A stretch of DNA of 64,000 nucleotides from Candidatus Magasanikbacteria bacterium GW2011_GWC2_37_14 (GCA_000990355.1 LBSX01000002.1:6000-69999); one strand, 5' to 3'; shown: positions 3,384-47,396, numbered from the stretch's first letter. Program-made: numbers and translations. The notes: a model not told the origin generated them from the letters alone.

Positions 3384-3977
3384 TTATTTGATAAGTTTTT
3401 TCTCTAAATAATTACCAATAAATAAATAGCCAATAAAGATTAAAATAATTATAACCGAAAAAATAATTGTGCCATAAGTTAAATAAGAATTAATTTTTTC
3501 TGAAAGTTGGCCAAGGTAATATCCAATGATTAAAAAAAATAAGGTTTTGGGTATGGTAGCCATTAAATCATATAAGAAAAAAAGCCACCAGTTTATTTTA
3601 ATTATACCAGCGGCTATAAGTATTGGTACTCCGGCCATGTGGGTGATTTTTCCAATGATTAGGGTTTTTCTAGGATGATTGTGAAAAATGTGTTTTAAAA
3701 AATTTAGACGTTTTTCTGACAATTTAGTAAAATTAGCATATTTTTCTGCGAGTTTTTTTCCACCCCAATAACCAGCTAAATAATAAAGACTGTCACTTAC
3801 CATTTCTGCGGCTATAATAATTACAAAAGCCAATAACCAATTAAACAAATCGTGAGCTAATAAAAAACCCACAAACATAGTTATTAGTGGGCCCTCAATA
3901 ATTACAAAAATAAAAACCAGCAAATAACGGTATATAGGTAAAAGTGTGGCAATTGTTGTTAGAGTTAAGAGGTCCAT
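3384..3977 (-). CDS. DedA/VTT-domain family membrane protein
   Basis: Multi-TM protein with the FVIIEGPLITMFVGF motif typical of DedA. Start moved to the internal Met at 3977 to limit overlap with the upstream gene. Confidence 0.55.
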   Translation of the reverse strand: MDLLTLTTIATLLPIYRYLLVFIFVIIEGPLITMFVGFLLAHDLFNWLLAFVIIIAAEMVSDSLYYLAGYWGGKKLAEKYANFTKLSEKRLNFLKHIFHNHPRKTLIIGKITHMAGVPILIAAGIIKINWWLFFLYDLMATIPKTLFFLIIGYYLGQLSEKINSYLTYGTIIFSVIIILIFIGYLFIGNYLEKKLIK

Positions 3978-3991
3978 TTTAATGTTATACA

Positions 3992-6583
3992 TTATATAGC
4001 AAATAAAAACCCATAACTCAAAGAAGTATAGGCCATATCTTGCCAAACAGTAAATTCATTCATATCCGGCATGCGGGCCCAAGGAGCATATTGTCGAAGG
4101 GCAGGAATATTTTTTGGGGTGGGATAAAAATTATTATACACCAAACAACCCCAAGCATCGGTAGGTTCACAATCGCCGTCATAATCTCGTGCATGGGGAC
4201 CATAAATAGGTAATCCAGGGACTGGTTTTTCTTGTTGGTCATACATAGAATTCAAATGTAGTGGAAATTCGGGATTTCTAATTCCTAATCCAGTTATCCA
4301 AGAAAGACCCAAAGGATTTTCTCCTAATTGATAATCAGCATTTAAAGAAATTGCGTCGATATATTTTTGATCTTTGGTAAAATAATATGCCATTGCAGTG
4401 CCAACAATACTTCTCATAGAGTTTGATCCCGAGCCCCAAGCAATTGCGTAATTAAAATTAGTAGAATTTTTATATTTATTTTCCATAATTTGTTCTACTT
4501 CGTCATTGCCAATTTCAATAATTCTATTTTTTACTTGTTCTTGAAAATCTCTGTCAACGTTGGTGCCATTGGCATTGCTATAACCCCAAAAAGAATAAAT
4601 ATTTGCAAACCAAGTAGGACCACGATAGGTTGGGTACAATTGTTTAAATACATTTTGATATTTTGTTTCATTGGTTAAAGCAAATAATTCTCCGGCGGCG
4701 TACATTTTTTCTCTTTCTAGTTCATTCAGTTTGTCTTCGTTACTTCTTTCTACAGGCGCTGTCGTGCCAAGGCTAGTTTGTTTTTCTGCCCAATCCCAAG
4801 CTTTCAAGGCTTTATTTTTTAAATCAGTGGCTTTGTTTTTTCCGGCGGGATAATTTTCCAAAATTCTCGCTAAATGTGCAGCTGCTCCGGCAAATTTATA
4901 AGAAGTCCATCTGTTTGGAGCATATGTCCAGTAGGGAAGTGTGTCACCCTCACATGTAGAAGAACCTGGGTGAGCATAACTCTCAACGCCAGCTCTTACT
5001 CCGCCGTCTGATTCTTGTAAAGTTTCCCATAATTTTATTCCCCATAAAGCTTCATCCAAAACATCTGGAATTTGGTTTCCACTTTCCGGAATATTTAATT
5101 GATTGTCTGTAAATTTATTAGGAAACATTTCTTGTAAGGTTGTTAAATCTTCGACAATTAGTAAATGCATTGGTCTTAAATCAAAATCACCAGCATCAAA
5201 CCAACCACCACTAATATTTATCGGGTTATTTTTGGAAGTATTTTTAGAAAATTTTTCACCAAAATCTTCCAATATATTTGTTTCAAATACTTGGTTCAGG
5301 CACATTTTATGAATCCAGTTGGTATATTTTGATTCTAGGGCTGTGCCAGCCCGTTGGTGGTACAAACCGCGAATTGCTGTATAAAAGGCTGTAAAAGCAG
5401 AATCTAGCCCTACGCTAAAGACAAGAGATCGACCAATTCCTTCTACCTCAAGATAATAATTACCTTCGTTTAAATCACTTAAATCTAATTCATATAAAAT
5501 TTCTCCACTTAGATTGTCCGATCCTAAGTTTGTTGATTTTCCCGAACTGACCAATTGTTTGGAACTGGCATTATACACTTGATAATTTAATTGTGTCGGC
5601 AATATTAAAGCACCGCCAGAACCTAACCAATAACCAACATAAGCATAGCGTTCTTTTGCTTTTAAAGAAAAACCATGTTGATTAATTTTAATAGCTTTGG
5701 CAATTTGCAAATCTTTGCCAGGCATTAAATTCCAAGAAGAAAATTGTTCATTGGAAAAATAACCAATTGTTCCGTTATAAACATATTTTTTACCTGTTGG
5801 GTTAATAAGTTCTACTGTATAATTTTGATCATTTTTTAATTCTTTAGGTAAAGTTAAATACAAAGTATGTCTTAAAACAACGTCGGCTTGGTTTTGGCCG
5901 TTATAATCTCTGTCTTCAGCATCTAATACTGCCGAAAATCGATCAATTTTTGTAGGATGAACAATATTTTTGTAATTTATATCACTAGTAGAAATAATAT
6001 TCCAATTGTTTGCATTCATTATAAAATTTAAATCAATTTCACCATCAAAAATTACTTCCGCTATTTTATTAGTAATTAGTCCAATTGAATTATTTTTTAT
6101 TACGACTTCAGAAGTAGTAAATTCACTGTCTGGATATATTTCCGAGTTGTTTATGGTTAATATTCTGTCCCAGCGATAGCCCAAATTATTAAAAGCAGTT
6201 TCATTAGCAATGTGTTTTTTTAATAAAATTCCTTTTTCACTGTATTCTAAGCGATAAACTTTATTACTATTAGCATATTTTATAATTGTAAATTCTGGGT
6301 GATGGTCAGTGTAATTTATTTCACCGGCAGTTTCGTATTTATTTAATAATTCGACATCAATATTTTCAATCCAATTCCAAGGGTATTTTAAAGAGTTAAA
6401 AATATTTTCAGATTTTATCCAATATTTTTTATTGTTCAATAATATATACACCTTTGGGTCGTTGGGAATTTTTACCAAAGCGCCATGCAGGGTGTTATTA
6501 ATAGAAAATGCTTTTGGCACAAACAATACAAAGGCAAAAACTAAGTTTAAAACAATTAAACTAAATATTTTTCTTTTATTCAT
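3992..6583 (-). CDS. Secreted glycoside hydrolase, GH9-like (alpha/alpha)6 catalytic domain, with N-terminal signal peptide and Ig-like/beta-sandwich region
   Basis: Signal peptide MNKRKIFSLIVLNLVFAFVLFVPKAFS. The GGWFDAGDFDLRP motif matches the GH9 signature GGWYDAGD. C-terminal YQLGENPLGLSWITGLG matches the GH9 C-terminal region. Confidence 0.6.
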   Translation of the reverse strand: MNKRKIFSLIVLNLVFAFVLFVPKAFSINNTLHGALVKIPNDPKVYILLNNKKYWIKSENIFNSLKYPWNWIENIDVELLNKYETAGEINYTDHHPEFTIIKYANSNKVYRLEYSEKGILLKKHIANETAFNNLGYRWDRILTINNSEIYPDSEFTTSEVVIKNNSIGLITNKIAEVIFDGEIDLNFIMNANNWNIISTSDINYKNIVHPTKIDRFSAVLDAEDRDYNGQNQADVVLRHTLYLTLPKELKNDQNYTVELINPTGKKYVYNGTIGYFSNEQFSSWNLMPGKDLQIAKAIKINQHGFSLKAKERYAYVGYWLGSGGALILPTQLNYQVYNASSKQLVSSGKSTNLGSDNLSGEILYELDLSDLNEGNYYLEVEGIGRSLVFSVGLDSAFTAFYTAIRGLYHQRAGTALESKYTNWIHKMCLNQVFETNILEDFGEKFSKNTSKNNPINISGGWFDAGDFDLRPMHLLIVEDLTTLQEMFPNKFTDNQLNIPESGNQIPDVLDEALWGIKLWETLQESDGGVRAGVESYAHPGSSTCEGDTLPYWTYAPNRWTSYKFAGAAAHLARILENYPAGKNKATDLKNKALKAWDWAEKQTSLGTTAPVERSNEDKLNELEREKMYAAGELFALTNETKYQNVFKQLYPTYRGPTWFANIYSFWGYSNANGTNVDRDFQEQVKNRIIEIGNDEVEQIMENKYKNSTNFNYAIAWGSGSNSMRSIVGTAMAYYFTKDQKYIDAISLNADYQLGENPLGLSWITGLGIRNPEFPLHLNSMYDQQEKPVPGLPIYGPHARDYDGDCEPTDAWGCLVYNNFYPTPKNIPALRQYAPWARMPDMNEFTVWQDMAYTSLSYGFLFAI

Positions 6584-9828: not shown

Positions 9829-9858
9829 ACAAAAATAAGGCTTTAATTAGGCCTTATT
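9829..9858 (-). terminator. Hairpin terminator downstream of tRNA-Asn
   Basis: AAATAAGGC/GCCTTATTT stem with a T-rich tail on the minus strand. Confidence 0.5.
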
Positions 9859-9865
9859 TTATAAG

Positions 9866-9937
9866 CTCGGGAGGTGGGGATCGAACCCACGACCATCACG
9901 TTAACAGCGTGCCGCTCTACCGCTGAGCTACTCCCGA
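9866..9937 (-). tRNA. tRNA-Asn (anticodon GTT)
   Basis: Manually folded cloverleaf. Acceptor stem TCGGGAG/CTCCCGA. D-arm GCTC-AGCGGTA-GAGC. Anticodon loop CTGTTAA (U33, GTT, A37). T-arm GTGGG-TTCGATC-CCCAC. Discriminator G. U1-A72 as in E. coli tRNA-Asn. CCA is not encoded. Confidence 0.85.
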
Positions 9938-10095
9938 ATATAAAATGTCTGTGTATTCACAGAAACTATGAACACATTAAATACCTTATACTTAAAGTGC
10001 GAAGCGGTACCACTGCCTGCCCGCCAAGCTTGCTGGTGATTGCGCCGGATGGTTGTGGTGTGAACCGAGAGGCGGGGGCTACTCCCGAATATAAA
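9927..10095. repeat. 18-bp direct repeat (GCTACTCCCGAATATAAA at 9927-9944 and 10078-10095) bracketing an insert of about 133 bp that includes a GC-rich palindromic block (9999-10077)
   Basis: Exact duplication of the tRNA-Asn 5' end plus upstream flank. Internal stem CCCGCC/GGCGGG and an AAGCTT palindrome. Confidence 0.6.
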
Positions 10096-10220
10096 TTGTT
10101 GGTATACTGTAAAATTGTGGTGAAATTATAACAAATAAAAAAACCAGTGTCAATAAGGATTATTAACAAGACGGCCAAAATTTTTGATTTATTTAAATTT
10201 AATGCTAAAATATATCTACT

Positions 10221-10778
10221 ATGTCAGACAATAAATATTTAAACATCGTAAACGAAGCTGGCCAAATTATTGGTGAAGATTCTCGGGAAAATATTCATAA
10301 AAATGGTTTGCTACATCGCGAAGTTCATGTTTGGTTTTATACCCCTCAAGGTGAGATTATTTTGCAACACCGTGGTAAAAATGCCGAGACTTTTCCTGAT
10401 TTGTTATATGTTACTGTGGGTGGTCATGTAGAAATAGGAGAGGATTTCGAGCAAGCCGCTCTAAAAGAAGTACAAGAAGAAACAGGTGTAAAATTAAAAA
10501 TTAGTGATTTAGTTTTGGTATATAAAGCTCACGCGCCAATTGATACTGACACTGTTACTCATAAAATAAATAATACCATAAGAGCAGTTTACGTTTATTG
10601 TTATCGAGGAGCAATCAAAGATTTACAAACAGAAAAAGGTGTAGGGCAAGGTTTTGAAGTATGGCCTTTGACAAGAATATTAAATATTTCAAATGAAGAC
10701 CGAATAAAATTAATTTTTAGTATTTTAAAAGAACCAGCTTTGGGAATTTTAAAAAAGATTCAAACAATGATAAAATAG
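10221..10778 (+). CDS. Nudix hydrolase (IDI/YfcD-like)
   Basis: Nudix box GGHVEIGEDFEQAALKEVQEETGV. Confidence 0.8.
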   Translation: MSDNKYLNIVNEAGQIIGEDSRENIHKNGLLHREVHVWFYTPQGEIILQHRGKNAETFPDLLYVTVGGHVEIGEDFEQAALKEVQEETGVKLKISDLVLVYKAHAPIDTDTVTHKINNTIRAVYVYCYRGAIKDLQTEKGVGQGFEVWPLTRILNISNEDRIKLIFSILKEPALGILKKIQTMIK

Positions 10779-37399: not shown

Positions 37400-40384
37400 A
37401 TGAAAGATCTGAATTTAGAACAAAAACAAGCAGTAGAATACACCTCTGGTCCGCTTTTGATTGTCGCCGGAGCTGGTACTGGTAAAACTACAGTAATCAC
37501 CCAAAAGATTACTTTTTTGGTTAAGCAAAATTTGGCCAAACCCGAAGAAATTTTGGCTTTAACTTTTACAGAAAAGGCAGCCGGGGAGATGCAGGAGCGC
37601 GTGGATCAACTATTGGATTTGGGTTATTCAGACATGCAGATTTCAACTTTTCATGCTTTTTGTCAAAAACTTTTAGAATTTCATGGGCTAGACATTGGCT
37701 TGTCAAATCAATTTAAATTATTAACTCCCACTGATGCTTGGCTCTTGGTACGTAAAAATTTAGATAAATTTAATTTGGATTATTATCGACCCCTGGGTAA
37801 TCCTACGCGCCATATCCATGAATTAATTAAACATTTTTCTAAGTGTAAGGATGAATTAATTACGCCAGCAGAATATTTAAAATATGCGGAAGAAGTGAGT
37901 TTGGATGATGATGCCGACCCCACCCCATCCTCCCCTACAAGGGGAGGGGAACGTAAGCGTCTCACTGAAATAGCTAATGCTTATCATACTTATAATCAAC
38001 TTTTGCTGGATAATAATTGTCTGGACTTTGGTGATCTAATTTTTTATGGCCTTAAATTGTTAAAAGAACGGCCAAATATTTTAAAATTATTGCAAAATAA
38101 ATATAAATATATTTTGGTTGACGAGTTTCAAGATGTTAATTATGCACAGTATGAATTGGTAAAATTGTTTACGACTAATGGAAATCAGTTAACAGTTGTG
38201 GGAGACGATGACCAGTCAATTTACGCCTTCCGCGGAGCATCGGTTTCCAATATCTTACGTTTTAAAGATGATTTTCCTAATGCCAAAGAAATTGTTTTAA
38301 CAGAAAATTATCGTTCAGGCCAAGAAATATTAGATTTAGCCTATAAATCAATACAAAATAATAATCCCGATCGTCTAGAGATTAAATTAAATATCAATAA
38401 ACAATTAAAGTCAGTAGTTAGTAGCCTGCCTGCCGGCGAGGCAGGTCTAAAGTCTGAAGTCGAATACAAGCATTTTAATACTTCAACTGAAGAAATTAAT
38501 TTTGTAATTAATAAAATTTGTGAGATTTGTAAAGATGAATCTGTAGTTTTGTCAGATTTTGCAATTTTAATTCGCGCCAATAGTCAGGCCGAACCGTTTA
38601 TTAATGCTTTTGAAAAAGTTGGTCTGCCTTATGAGTATCTGGCTTCGTCTGGATTATATCGCCAGCCATTAATTTTAGATTGTATTAACTTTTTAAAAGT
38701 ATTGGACAACTATCACGAATCCAGTGCTATTTTTCGTTTATTACATTTACCTTTTTTAAAATTTAATCCAGATGATTTACAAAAAATAACCTATTTTTCT
38801 AAGAAAAAAAGCATTTCTTATTATGAAACTCTAAAACGTGGATTGGAAATTAATTTATCAAAAACAGGTATTGAAATAGTCAATAAATTGTTAAATATAA
38901 TAAACAGTGGCACACAAATGGCCAAGGAAAAAAAACCTATAATAATTTTATTAGATTTTTTAGAACAAAGTGGTTATTTTAAATATCTTGCCTTGGAAGA
39001 TGAACAAGGTAATAGAGAAATAATTAAACAAATTAAAGAGCTACGAAGTTTTTTTGAAGAAGTTAAACACTACGAAGAATCAGTGCCTCAAGCACGCGTG
39101 TCAGATTTTTTGGAACATTATAATTATATTTTAGAGTCTGGTGATGAAGGGCAAATGTTTAAAAATCTAGAAGAAACAGAAGCGATAAAAATTTTAACGA
39201 TTCATTCTGCCAAGGGCTTAGAATTTAAATATGTTTTTGTTGTTAACTTGGTGGAAGAACGTTTTCCTAGTCGTAAACGTGGAGAAGCTATTGAATTGCC
39301 TGTATCATTAATTAAAGAAAATCTATCAGAAGTGGATTACCATGTTAATGAAGAAAGACGTTTATTTTATGTGGCCTGTACCAGAGCCAAAGAAAAATTA
39401 TTTTTAACTAGCGCGGATGATTATGGTGGGGTGAGAAAGAAGAAAGTTAGTAGGTTTATTGATGAATTAAATTTAAGTATGGAAGCAAGGCAACAATATA
39501 ACAATGTAACTATTGACACATTGCCACATTGTCACACTGTTGACAAAAAAGATATTAATCAGTCTAAAAGTACTACAATTTTATCTGACACCTTTTCCTA
39601 CTCCCAAATCAATTCATATCTTCGCTGTCCTTATCAGTATAAATTAGCCCATGTATTAAAAATTCCTACCACAGGCAATGCTAGTTTTAGTTTTGGTTCA
39701 ACTATACATAATACTTTACAAAAATTTTATAACCAGGTTATTGAATTAAATAGTATTAAACAAGATTCGTTGTTTGTTCAACATACTACAACTAAACAAG
39801 TTGGAGAAATAAAAGTTCCAACATTGGATAATTTACTAAAATTTTATAAAGATTCTTGGCAAGATGACTGGTATCAAAATAAACAACAACGAGAGGAATT
39901 TTACAAAAAAGGACATAAAATATTGGAAATATTTTATTCTTCAGAGCAAAAAAATGGCTGGACTGTGCCAGTTTTTCTAGAGAGCGGTTTTAAAATTAAA
40001 ATAGGAGATTATTTTATAAATGGACGCATAGATCATATTGATAAATTATCGGCTGGTGCTTTAAAGATTATTGATTATAAAACCGGTAAAGCTAAAGAAA
40101 AAGTAGTTGGCGATGATAAAAATCAACTGCTAATTTATCAAATTGCCGCGGAAATTTTACCTGAATACAAAAATATTGGCCCAGTTAGTGAATTAACTTT
40201 TTATTATTTAGAAGAAAATCTTACAACGTCTTTTGTTGGCGACGATAAAGACAAAACAAAACTACAAGAAAAAATTATCAAAACAATTGGGGAAATAAAC
40301 GATTCTAATTTTGTTGCCACACCCAGTGAACACATTTGTCAGCATTGTGATTTTAGAGACATTTGTCAGTTTAGACAATTATAA
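37400..40384 (+). CDS. UvrD/PcrA-family superfamily-1 helicase fused to C-terminal PD-(D/E)XK (RecB/Cas4-like) nuclease with Cys cluster; AddA-like
   Basis: Walker A AGAGTGKTT, VDEFQD, GDDDQSIYAFRGA. C-terminal GRIDHIDKL...IIDYKTGK and CQHCDFRDICQF. Two in-frame GC-rich inserts. Confidence 0.8.
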   Translation: MKDLNLEQKQAVEYTSGPLLIVAGAGTGKTTVITQKITFLVKQNLAKPEEILALTFTEKAAGEMQERVDQLLDLGYSDMQISTFHAFCQKLLEFHGLDIGLSNQFKLLTPTDAWLLVRKNLDKFNLDYYRPLGNPTRHIHELIKHFSKCKDELITPAEYLKYAEEVSLDDDADPTPSSPTRGGERKRLTEIANAYHTYNQLLLDNNCLDFGDLIFYGLKLLKERPNILKLLQNKYKYILVDEFQDVNYAQYELVKLFTTNGNQLTVVGDDDQSIYAFRGASVSNILRFKDDFPNAKEIVLTENYRSGQEILDLAYKSIQNNNPDRLEIKLNINKQLKSVVSSLPAGEAGLKSEVEYKHFNTSTEEINFVINKICEICKDESVVLSDFAILIRANSQAEPFINAFEKVGLPYEYLASSGLYRQPLILDCINFLKVLDNYHESSAIFRLLHLPFLKFNPDDLQKITYFSKKKSISYYETLKRGLEINLSKTGIEIVNKLLNIINSGTQMAKEKKPIIILLDFLEQSGYFKYLALEDEQGNREIIKQIKELRSFFEEVKHYEESVPQARVSDFLEHYNYILESGDEGQMFKNLEETEAIKILTIHSAKGLEFKYVFVVNLVEERFPSRKRGEAIELPVSLIKENLSEVDYHVNEERRLFYVACTRAKEKLFLTSADDYGGVRKKKVSRFIDELNLSMEARQQYNNVTIDTLPHCHTVDKKDINQSKSTTILSDTFSYSQINSYLRCPYQYKLAHVLKIPTTGNASFSFGSTIHNTLQKFYNQVIELNSIKQDSLFVQHTTTKQVGEIKVPTLDNLLKFYKDSWQDDWYQNKQQREEFYKKGHKILEIFYSSEQKNGWTVPVFLESGFKIKIGDYFINGRIDHIDKLSAGALKIIDYKTGKAKEKVVGDDKNQLLIYQIAAEILPEYKNIGPVSELTFYYLEENLTTSFVGDDKDKTKLQEKIIKTIGEINDSNFVATPSEHICQHCDFRDICQFRQL
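37913..37949. repeat. Family B element (ACCCCACCCC plus CCTCCCCT/GGGGAGG hairpin) inside the helicase gene
   Basis: Translated as ADPTPSSPTRGGE. Same hairpin as 1443-1463. Confidence 0.6.
38421..38447. repeat. Family B element (GTAGCCTGCCTGCC-GGCGA-GGCAGG hairpin) inside the helicase gene
   Basis: Translated as SSLPAGEAGL. Same module as 1465-1487. Confidence 0.6.
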
Positions 40385-47244: not shown

Positions 47245-47396
47245 AATTAGTCTACCTACTGGCAGGCAGGCTAAATATTCTACAAATACCTCAAAAAAAT
47301 GGGGTATTTGTGTTTTTTGTGGTTTTTTGCTAAAATAAAAGATAATAAATCCCTGTAAAAAGGATCTTTTTTCACTACAAATAACTAGCTAATTTT

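Follow-up and report, generated by a model that had tools for sequence, protein, structure and literature searches.

A probable partial duplication of the start of tRNA-Asn in a groundwater Candidatus Magasanikbacteria genome and a recurrent GIY-YIG-linked layout at Patescibacterial tRNA-Asn genes

In a stretch of 64,000 nucleotides from a groundwater Candidatus Magasanikbacteria bacterium (Patescibacteria), hereafter the window, an 18-bp direct repeat covers the 5' boundary of the gene for tRNA-Asn and recurs a short distance upstream. Our preferred reading, which we hold with modest confidence, is that this repeat represents a tandem partial duplication of the start of tRNA-Asn, and that it is an ORF-less form of an arrangement linked to GIY-YIG nuclease genes rather than the footprint of a transposase. 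The extra DNA is absent beside an identical tRNA gene in a related locus (L043), the layout recurs at other Patescibacterial tRNA-Asn genes, and its recurrence is statistically tied to GIY-YIG genes. The arrangement is apparently undescribed, as we found no description of a pseudo-copy coupled to a GIY-YIG gene in open-access literature text.

Results

The start of tRNA-Asn is repeated upstream of the intact gene

The repeated 18-mer, GCTACTCCCGAATATAAA, occupies two sites, 9927-9944 and 10078-10095, with 133 bp between the copies and 151 bp from start to start. The match is exact, as the initial annotation had reported when it described an 18-bp direct repeat with a 133-bp gap at the 5' boundary of the tRNA. 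No third copy is present in the 64-kb window even with up to 3 mismatches tolerated. Only 0.07 matches to the 18-mer would be expected by chance and two matches were found in 0/100 shuffles. Around the 18-mer the likeness stretches imperfectly to 29 nt (25/29).

The tRNA-Asn(GTT) gene itself occupies 9865-9937 on the minus strand and is a 73-nt, uninterrupted gene with neither an intron nor an encoded CCA. Given this position, the 18-mer consists of 7 nt of 5' leader followed by tRNA nt 1-11. The sequence of the region is the same in two more independent assemblies (one JGI contig and one Logan contig), indicating that it is no assembly artefact. In the direction of transcription the tRNA-Asn unit is laid out as follows.

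10125..10153, minus strand: sigma-70 promoter, TTGACA-17 nt-TATAAT with a TG extension (TGtTATAAT), agreeing with the consensus at 12/12 positions
10096..10124, minus strand: leader before the pseudo-copy, presumably transcribed, with a 5' part, TTCACCACAATTTTA, like the entire short leader of uninterrupted relatives
10078..10095, minus strand: repeat copy 2, a pseudo-copy of the tRNA-Asn start made of leader TTTATAT and tRNA nt 1-11, TCGGGAGTAGC
10016..10077, minus strand: GC-rich insertion, an imperfect palindrome that forms the core of the block, with outer stem CCCGCC (10076-10071) pairing with GGCGGG (10025-20)
9992..10015, minus strand: possible decayed continuation of the pseudo-tRNA, CAGTGGTACCGCTTCGCACTTTAA, compared with CAGCGGTAGAGCGGCACGCTGTTAA of tRNA nt 13-37
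9945..9991, minus strand: AT-rich spacer, terminator-like in that a hairpin (GUGUUCAUAG/CUGUGAAUAC) precedes a U-rich run
9927..9944, minus strand: repeat copy 1, the true leader end TTTATAT and the first 11 nt of the functional tRNA
9865..9937, minus strand: intact tRNA-Asn(GTT) (ARAGORN; Rfam tRNA model, 67 bits)
9832..9860, minus strand: perfect inverted repeat of 10 bp, then a T run; probably terminates the tRNA unit

The promoter at 10125..10153 is the sole strong promoter upstream of tRNA-Asn, and transcription of the unit probably starts near 10118. By alignment, this promoter is homologous to the one that directly precedes an identical tRNA-Asn in L043 and L131. The pseudo-copy (10088-10078) begins exactly at tRNA +1, ~36 nt past the -10 box, and the palindrome at 10016-10077 interrupts it right behind nt 11. 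Beyond the palindrome, CAGTGGTACCGCTTCGCACTTTAA is collinear with tRNA nt 13-37 and identical at 17/25 positions, although this score was reached by 84/1000 shuffles (p ~0.08) and is not significant alone; the variant CAGTGGTA is common to this part of the window and to the pseudo-copy of L124. What had been annotated as a GC-rich block may thus be read as a pseudo-tRNA start, a ~62-nt GC-rich imperfect palindrome and a possible decayed rest of the 5' half. Between the block and the tRNA (9938-10077) there is no usable consensus promoter, so that the tRNA most likely relies on the distant promoter, whose transcripts would have to run through the entire insert, the terminator-like spacer included, for tRNA-Asn to be made.

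The GC-rich block has an unremarkable fold

Between 9981 and 10103 the GC content reaches up to 66% per 80 nt, the joint maximum of the window (mean 32.7% GC), and the block contains stems, for example CCCGCC/GGCGGG at 10020-10025 and 10071-10076. To this extent the initial annotation of a GC-rich block with stems is upheld, but as a whole the block is no more stable in folding than its shuffled versions (z = +0.67, minus strand; -0.06, plus strand).

That the block could be a structured RNA had also been suggested. We considered a functional RNA of this kind in the form of a leader element or sRNA that is co-transcribed with tRNA-Asn and freed by RNase P, which would recognize the tRNA-like 5' end together with an acceptor-like hairpin of 7 bp in the block (UCGGGAG/CUCUCGG). 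The perfect promoter upstream is consistent with this idea, as is a block of 66% GC, akin to RNA genes, in a genome of 33% GC, and long structured leaders precede tRNA-Asn in L121, L082, L103 and L095. In addition, the entire leader folds mildly better than shuffled sequence (z = -1.6; 12/200 shuffles), and the acceptor-like hairpin is accompanied by a likeness of the block to the tRNA 3' end. However, the score of that likeness was reached by 202/500 shuffles and is not significant. Moreover, a search of Rfam 15 at E <= 10, which included a 186-nt slice and was the kind of search that the annotation had proposed for the insert, returned the tRNA as its sole match and nothing credible for the block. 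We found no alignable family of homologues for the block and no conserved homologues in viral or metagenome scans, and the block is absent from L043 despite an identical tRNA. Together with the fold z-scores, these results lead us to regard a structured RNA as unlikely; today the block is probably just part of a long leader.

Other candidates for this DNA were rejected. SRP RNA, 5S rRNA, class II or selenocysteine tRNA, tmRNA, RNase P fragments and ribozymes were ruled out by Rfam at E <= 10 together with ARAGORN, and local alignments gave no significant support for the block as a decayed full tRNA copy or as a promoter copy. Rfam likewise gave no group I intron match in the extra DNA upstream of the tRNA.

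The GC-rich leaders seen elsewhere span ~90-150 nt between the promoter and tRNA-Asn in L103 (~4477-4600), L095, L082 and L121, without an Rfam match. The two ends of the L103 leader element, GGGAGUAG on the 5' side and CUACUCC on the 3' side, are complementary in the manner of a closing acceptor-type stem, and an internal motif, AAGGGACCCAA...GGACGGAGG, is common to L103 and L095.

A related locus has the uninterrupted site

Comparison with related genomes, which the initial annotation had called for, located an uninterrupted site. Locus L043 carries a tRNA-Asn that is 73/73 identical to that of the window and, ~1.5 kb away and in the same divergent orientation, a cupin gene whose protein is 90% identical to its counterpart in the window. 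Its promoter is homologous to that of the window (ATTGACA...TTTGTTATAAT), and all that separates it from the tRNA is a leader of 16 nt with TTTTATAT at its end. Since the L043 promoter runs directly into the tRNA, the window holds ~151 extra bases between promoter and gene. The same short-leader state is found in L131, L114, L062 and L034. Judged from these alignments the extra DNA appears to be the derived state, with the reading resting on one close uninterrupted relative (L043), for which gain in the lineage of the window and precise loss in L043 are indistinguishable; with direct repeats on either side, the insert could also be lost precisely.

The CNNM gene downstream was a poor guide to synteny, with no relative closer than 73% identity. 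In L006 and L114 a tRNA-Asn precedes the CNNM gene; the L114 promoter lies 12 nt from the tRNA, and nothing corresponding to the block was seen ahead of the L006 tRNA. A search for closer relatives found no tRNA near the cupin gene in P0124, P0128 or P0131.

The insert lacks the hallmarks of a transposon or an integrase-borne island

The initial annotation had interpreted the repeat as a target-site duplication made by a small non-autonomous element. A MITE-like element inserted in the start of the tRNA gene with an 18-bp duplication of its target would account for a discrete insert between direct repeats and for the uninterrupted site in a relative, yet we consider such an element very improbable. 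The ends of the insert are not inverted repeats of each other, so that it lacks terminal inverted repeats. There is no second copy of the insert in the 64 kb, the fetched loci, phages or plasmids, and BLAST of the insert against phages and plasmids returned nothing meaningful. Exact scans of viral contigs with one 27-mer and two further stretches of the block, and of metagenome contigs with one 23-mer of the block, were likewise empty. One 20-mer of the block matched two GC-rich phage contigs within a Pro/Ala-rich coding stretch; as the flanks of the match differ, we treated it as chance. Furthermore, the target duplications of transposases are typically far shorter than the 18-29 bp seen here.

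Among the Pfam hits of called genes within ~10 kb there is no integrase or transposase family, a result that bears, over that distance, on the suggestion that a cognate enzyme be sought and equally on the proposal of a relic attachment site. In one form of that proposal, the repeat would mark an integrase island of which the Nudix/cupin/GNAT cluster is what remains. The neighborhood is indeed variable, with a Nudix gene adjoining the tRNA promoter in the window and a gene for a 407-aa membrane protein in that place in L043. However, the repeat spans the tRNA 5' end and leader, whereas known tRNA-targeting integrases duplicate the 3' part of the tRNA, and the second copy lies a mere 133 bp away, with no other to be found in the 64 kb. 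We give this possibility almost no credence.

Two further observations concern the neighborhood. The best promoter-like site of the Nudix gene (10184-10221) ends just 10 nt before the ATG, with no Shine-Dalgarno sequence seen, which suggests that the Nudix mRNA may be leaderless or nearly so. Gene orientation and GC skew flip sign together at ~10000 and ~58000 of the window. We rejected a replication origin at the ~10-kb strand switch, where skew tracks gene orientation and DnaA boxes are not enriched; with no cluster of DnaA boxes the switch gives no evidence of an origin.

Partial 5' copies recur at Patescibacterial tRNA-Asn genes and accompany GIY-YIG genes

Loci were collected by a degenerate metagenome scan with the shared first 24 nt, a pattern that fits either the tRNA or the copy of its start in the block; every one of the 119 loci returned was a tRNA-Asn-type 5' half. 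A partial 5' copy beside the promoter was present in 16/98 tRNA-Asn loci that share the 5' half found in the window. The first seven tRNA bases, TCGGGAG, occur again upstream on the same strand in 15/97 non-redundant loci (permuted 7-mers, mean 1.4 loci) and downstream of the tRNA in only 2/97. The partial copies in the listed loci start with the first tRNA base, close behind a -10-like hexamer. They comprise from 4 to ~35 nt of tRNA sequence and are usually split by one or two GC-rich palindromes (within the pseudo-copies of L015, L019, L021, L023, L060, L077, L093, L109, L124, L132 and L180), and in several loci they end at or near position 35/36 in the anticodon loop.

In 12/98 loci, the tRNA is directly preceded by a GIY-YIG ORF of ~80-95 aa (Pfam PF01541, E = 6e-12 to 2e-16). 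These ORFs are predicted to encode little more than the catalytic domain. A pseudo-copy accompanies 10/12 of the GIY-YIG loci and 6/86 of the others (Fisher p = 3e-8). The full loci run in the order promoter, pseudo 5' copy with GC palindromes, GIY-YIG ORF and intact tRNA, and those with the ORF between the promoter-proximal pseudo-copy and the intact tRNA-Asn are as follows.

L015/L104, L019, L021, L023/L086, L060, L077, L093, L109, L124, L132, L053, L180

One of these, L180, is an IMG/VR contig with the same cassette at a different tRNA-Asn variant. In several loci the GIY-YIG ORF terminates within the intact tRNA, at a TAG formed by nt 8-10 or by nt 19-21, so that RNase P cleavage at the tRNA 5' end would strip the stop of the ORF from the transcript.

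Incomplete forms were also present. In L106 just the C-terminal half of the GIY-YIG ORF is left, indicating that decay intermediates exist, and a pseudo-copy stands without an ORF in L040/L066 (whose tRNA is identical to that of the window), L076, L039 and L129. Because the same layout elsewhere carries a GIY-YIG gene, selfish elements are implicated in the extra DNA of the window. Of the earlier picture of an insert flanked by a duplication, which is half right, we retain derived extra DNA, interrupted by comparison with L043, and a part played by selfish elements, and set aside the transposon, attachment-site and small-RNA readings.

Related layouts were seen at other positions. More small GIY-YIG ORFs lie just downstream of tRNAs or beside the CNNM gene (L003 2096-2386; L007 4694-4972; L093 876-1181; L109 10488-10808), indicating that the association with tRNA loci is not confined to the upstream side. 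A tRNA-Cys(GCA) upstream of tRNA-Asn in L080 (~3400-3565) and L050 (~740-900) has the same layout without an ORF, namely a promoter, a partial 5' copy (GGGCCCATAGCTCAT and a decayed rest to the anticodon loop), an AT-rich spacer and the intact tRNA-Cys. The 3' end of tRNA-Asn (..CTCCCGAGCC) is likewise partly copied downstream of intact genes in L040 (~170 nt), L017, L025, L027, L044, L045, L089, L110, L118 and L124. The flank that adjoins the end of the tRNA in L043 lies behind the displaced 3' copy in L040, which suggests that small insertions with duplication take place at the 3' end as well.

The window resembles an ORF-less member of this class

Of the features by which we define the class, the window has the partial copy from +1 behind the promoter and the GC palindrome splitting the pseudo-copy, and it lacks the GIY-YIG ORF between the pseudo-copy and the intact tRNA. 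A search of the six-frame translation with a profile built from the cassette nucleases gave nothing below E = 3.7, and no trace of a GIY-YIG ORF was detected in the insert or elsewhere in the 64 kb. By eye, the spacer has AAGTATAAGGTATTT where the start of the L124 ORF has ATGTATAAAGTTTAT; with the profile search empty, we do not claim a GIY-YIG remnant in the spacer.

The 133-bp insert also resembles part of an ORF-bearing cassette. Gapped alignment, in a set of four comparisons, paired it with the part of L093 that separates the pseudo-copy from the ORF, at a score of 69.2 (null 52.9 +/- 4.8) that was reached by 0/500 shuffles and by 3-8/1000 under more conservative block shuffling. A local alignment of the window palindrome with the hairpin in the L093 pseudo-tRNA, CCACAACC...GGCGGGCAGGCAG, is identical at 33/46 positions (13/1000 block shuffles), and the score of the insert against L109 was reached by 16/500 shuffles. 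At the level of BLAST the insert has no similarity to any fetched locus (best 27.6 bits, null mean 27.1). Taken together, these comparisons indicate that the insert is most likely a relic or miniature, ORF-less, of a recurrent insertion at the 5' end of tRNA-Asn. Whether the copy in the window once held a nuclease ORF we put at roughly even odds.

The main rival to an ORF-less form of the GIY-YIG-linked arrangement is a plain tandem duplication, produced by slippage or unequal recombination and later colonized by a GC palindrome, at a site where a nuclease was never present. The window shows no detectable ORF remnant, L039, L129 and L076 have pseudo-copies that lack an ORF and whose units measure only 44-62 nt, the tRNA-Cys genes of L080 and L050 have a partial 5' copy without an ORF, and GC mini-palindromes insert independently elsewhere in this genome. 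Set against this are the strong tie of pseudo-copies to GIY-YIG ORFs, the truncated-ORF intermediate L106 and the resemblance of the insert to the 5' part of the L093 cassette, and we therefore view plain duplication as possible but rather doubtful. Our preferred explanation, the GIY-YIG-linked one, has a difficulty of its own in that a perfect 18 nt adjoins strongly decayed sequence, a combination that calls for gene conversion, recency or selection.

The window contains scattered short GC-rich palindromes

Short GC-rich palindromes are scattered in the AT-rich window at 1443-1487, 37929-37947, 38425-38445 and 47251-47270. The sequence CCTGCCTGCCGGTAGGCAGG at 1468-1487 is identical to the hairpin that splits the L124 pseudo-tRNA. 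An ORF for a UvrD/AddA-like helicase-nuclease (37343-40384) contains, in frame, both a variant of this sequence and a palindrome of a second type, CCTCCCCTACAAGGGGAGG. Exact copies of the 20-mer CCTGCCTGCCGGTAGGCAGG were found as well in L023, L082 and L124, together with 47 IMG/VR contigs (33-70% GC), several of which have multiple copies. No RAYT-type transposase was seen in the stretches examined.

Discussion

How the duplication was generated we infer from the sequences compared here. In the explanation we favor, the promoter at 10153-10125 would be the original tRNA promoter, now standing ahead of a dead partial gene copy that consists of 7 nt of leader, tRNA nt 1-11 and possibly decayed nt 13-37, and that is split by a GC-rich imperfect palindrome of ~62 nt. 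Behind the dead copy would follow the AT-rich spacer and then the second copy of the leader with the intact tRNA. The arrangement would go back to an insertion or a repair event, associated with an endonuclease, within the 5' half of a single-copy essential tRNA gene; such an event would survive only because the leader and 5' part were duplicated and the downstream copy remained whole. The upstream stump could then serve as a safe, neutral landing place for palindromes and nuclease genes, and loss of the ORF would yield forms like that of the window. Today the promoter would drive a leader of ~180 nt that is read through, with RNase P cutting at 9937/9938.

Several known systems resemble parts of this arrangement. 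Integrative elements that target tRNA genes restore the gene with a duplicated tRNA segment, the attL/attR cores. As with those elements, a partial tRNA copy flanks the insert, the essential gene is left intact and presence varies among close relatives. Unlike those elements, the window duplicates the 5' end and leader around an insert of 133 bp, with no tyrosine or serine integrase among the Pfam hits within ~10 kb, and the enzyme in the full-length relatives is a predicted GIY-YIG nuclease. Short palindromic elements offer a second comparison: REP/BIME sequences and the Rickettsia palindromic elements, the latter of which are tolerated in frame in protein genes. The GC palindromes of the window are similarly dispersed between genes and also found in frame in the UvrD/AddA-like helicase, and one type splits pseudo-tRNAs; they differ in being much shorter (~20 nt). 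The block itself is a long, imperfect relative of these ~20-nt palindromes, with just a 6-bp outer stem.

SegB of phage T4 is encoded by a free-standing GIY-YIG homing endonuclease gene in a tRNA cluster (PMC2330249). The related loci similarly carry a small GIY-YIG gene among or against tRNAs, and their patchy spread is as expected of a selfish nuclease gene. The window differs in being without a nuclease ORF. The Patescibacterial ORFs (~80-95 aa), for their part, differ from SegB as described in that they appear to extend hardly beyond the catalytic domain, have a pseudo 5' copy of the tRNA at their flank and often run on into the intact tRNA before they stop.

A published paper describes group I introns in the tRNA-Asn of Patescibacteria, at position 35/36; it names LAGLIDADG, PD-(D/E)XK and HNH endonucleases for tRNA introns, and its text contains no words beginning 'duplicat', 'pseudogene' or 'leader' (PMC13011429). 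The target gene is the same as here, and several related pseudo-copies stop at or near the 35/36 insertion point; unlike the intron-bearing genes, however, the tRNA-Asn of the window is uninterrupted and its extra DNA lies upstream of the gene. In agreement with that paper, many of L015-L133 have group I introns (Rfam RF00028) after GGCTGT (35/36), among them L104, L023, L065, L095 and L106, and the downstream part of L023 contains, by eye, a likely HNH endonuclease ORF.

We tentatively raise the possibility, doubtful as it is, that Patescibacteria harbor an undescribed selfish system directed against single-copy tRNA-Asn. In such a system a minimal GIY-YIG gene would insert in the 5' half of the tRNA gene, duplicate the leader and 5' part as a rescue, borrow the tRNA promoter, end its frame inside the tRNA and travel with GC palindromes that its nuclease may cut or mobilize, and the window would represent a decayed or non-autonomous member.

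The functional consequence in the window is low, the feature there being most likely a harmless scar that has lengthened the tRNA-Asn leader from ~16 nt to ~180 nt. Its value is as a pointer to a recurrent layout at Patescibacterial tRNA-Asn that is worth a systematic survey. If the nuclease is a homing enzyme, the layout would represent a novel means by which a selfish gene can settle in an essential single-copy tRNA gene without lethality, and would account for partial tRNA fragments that confuse the annotation of these reduced genomes.
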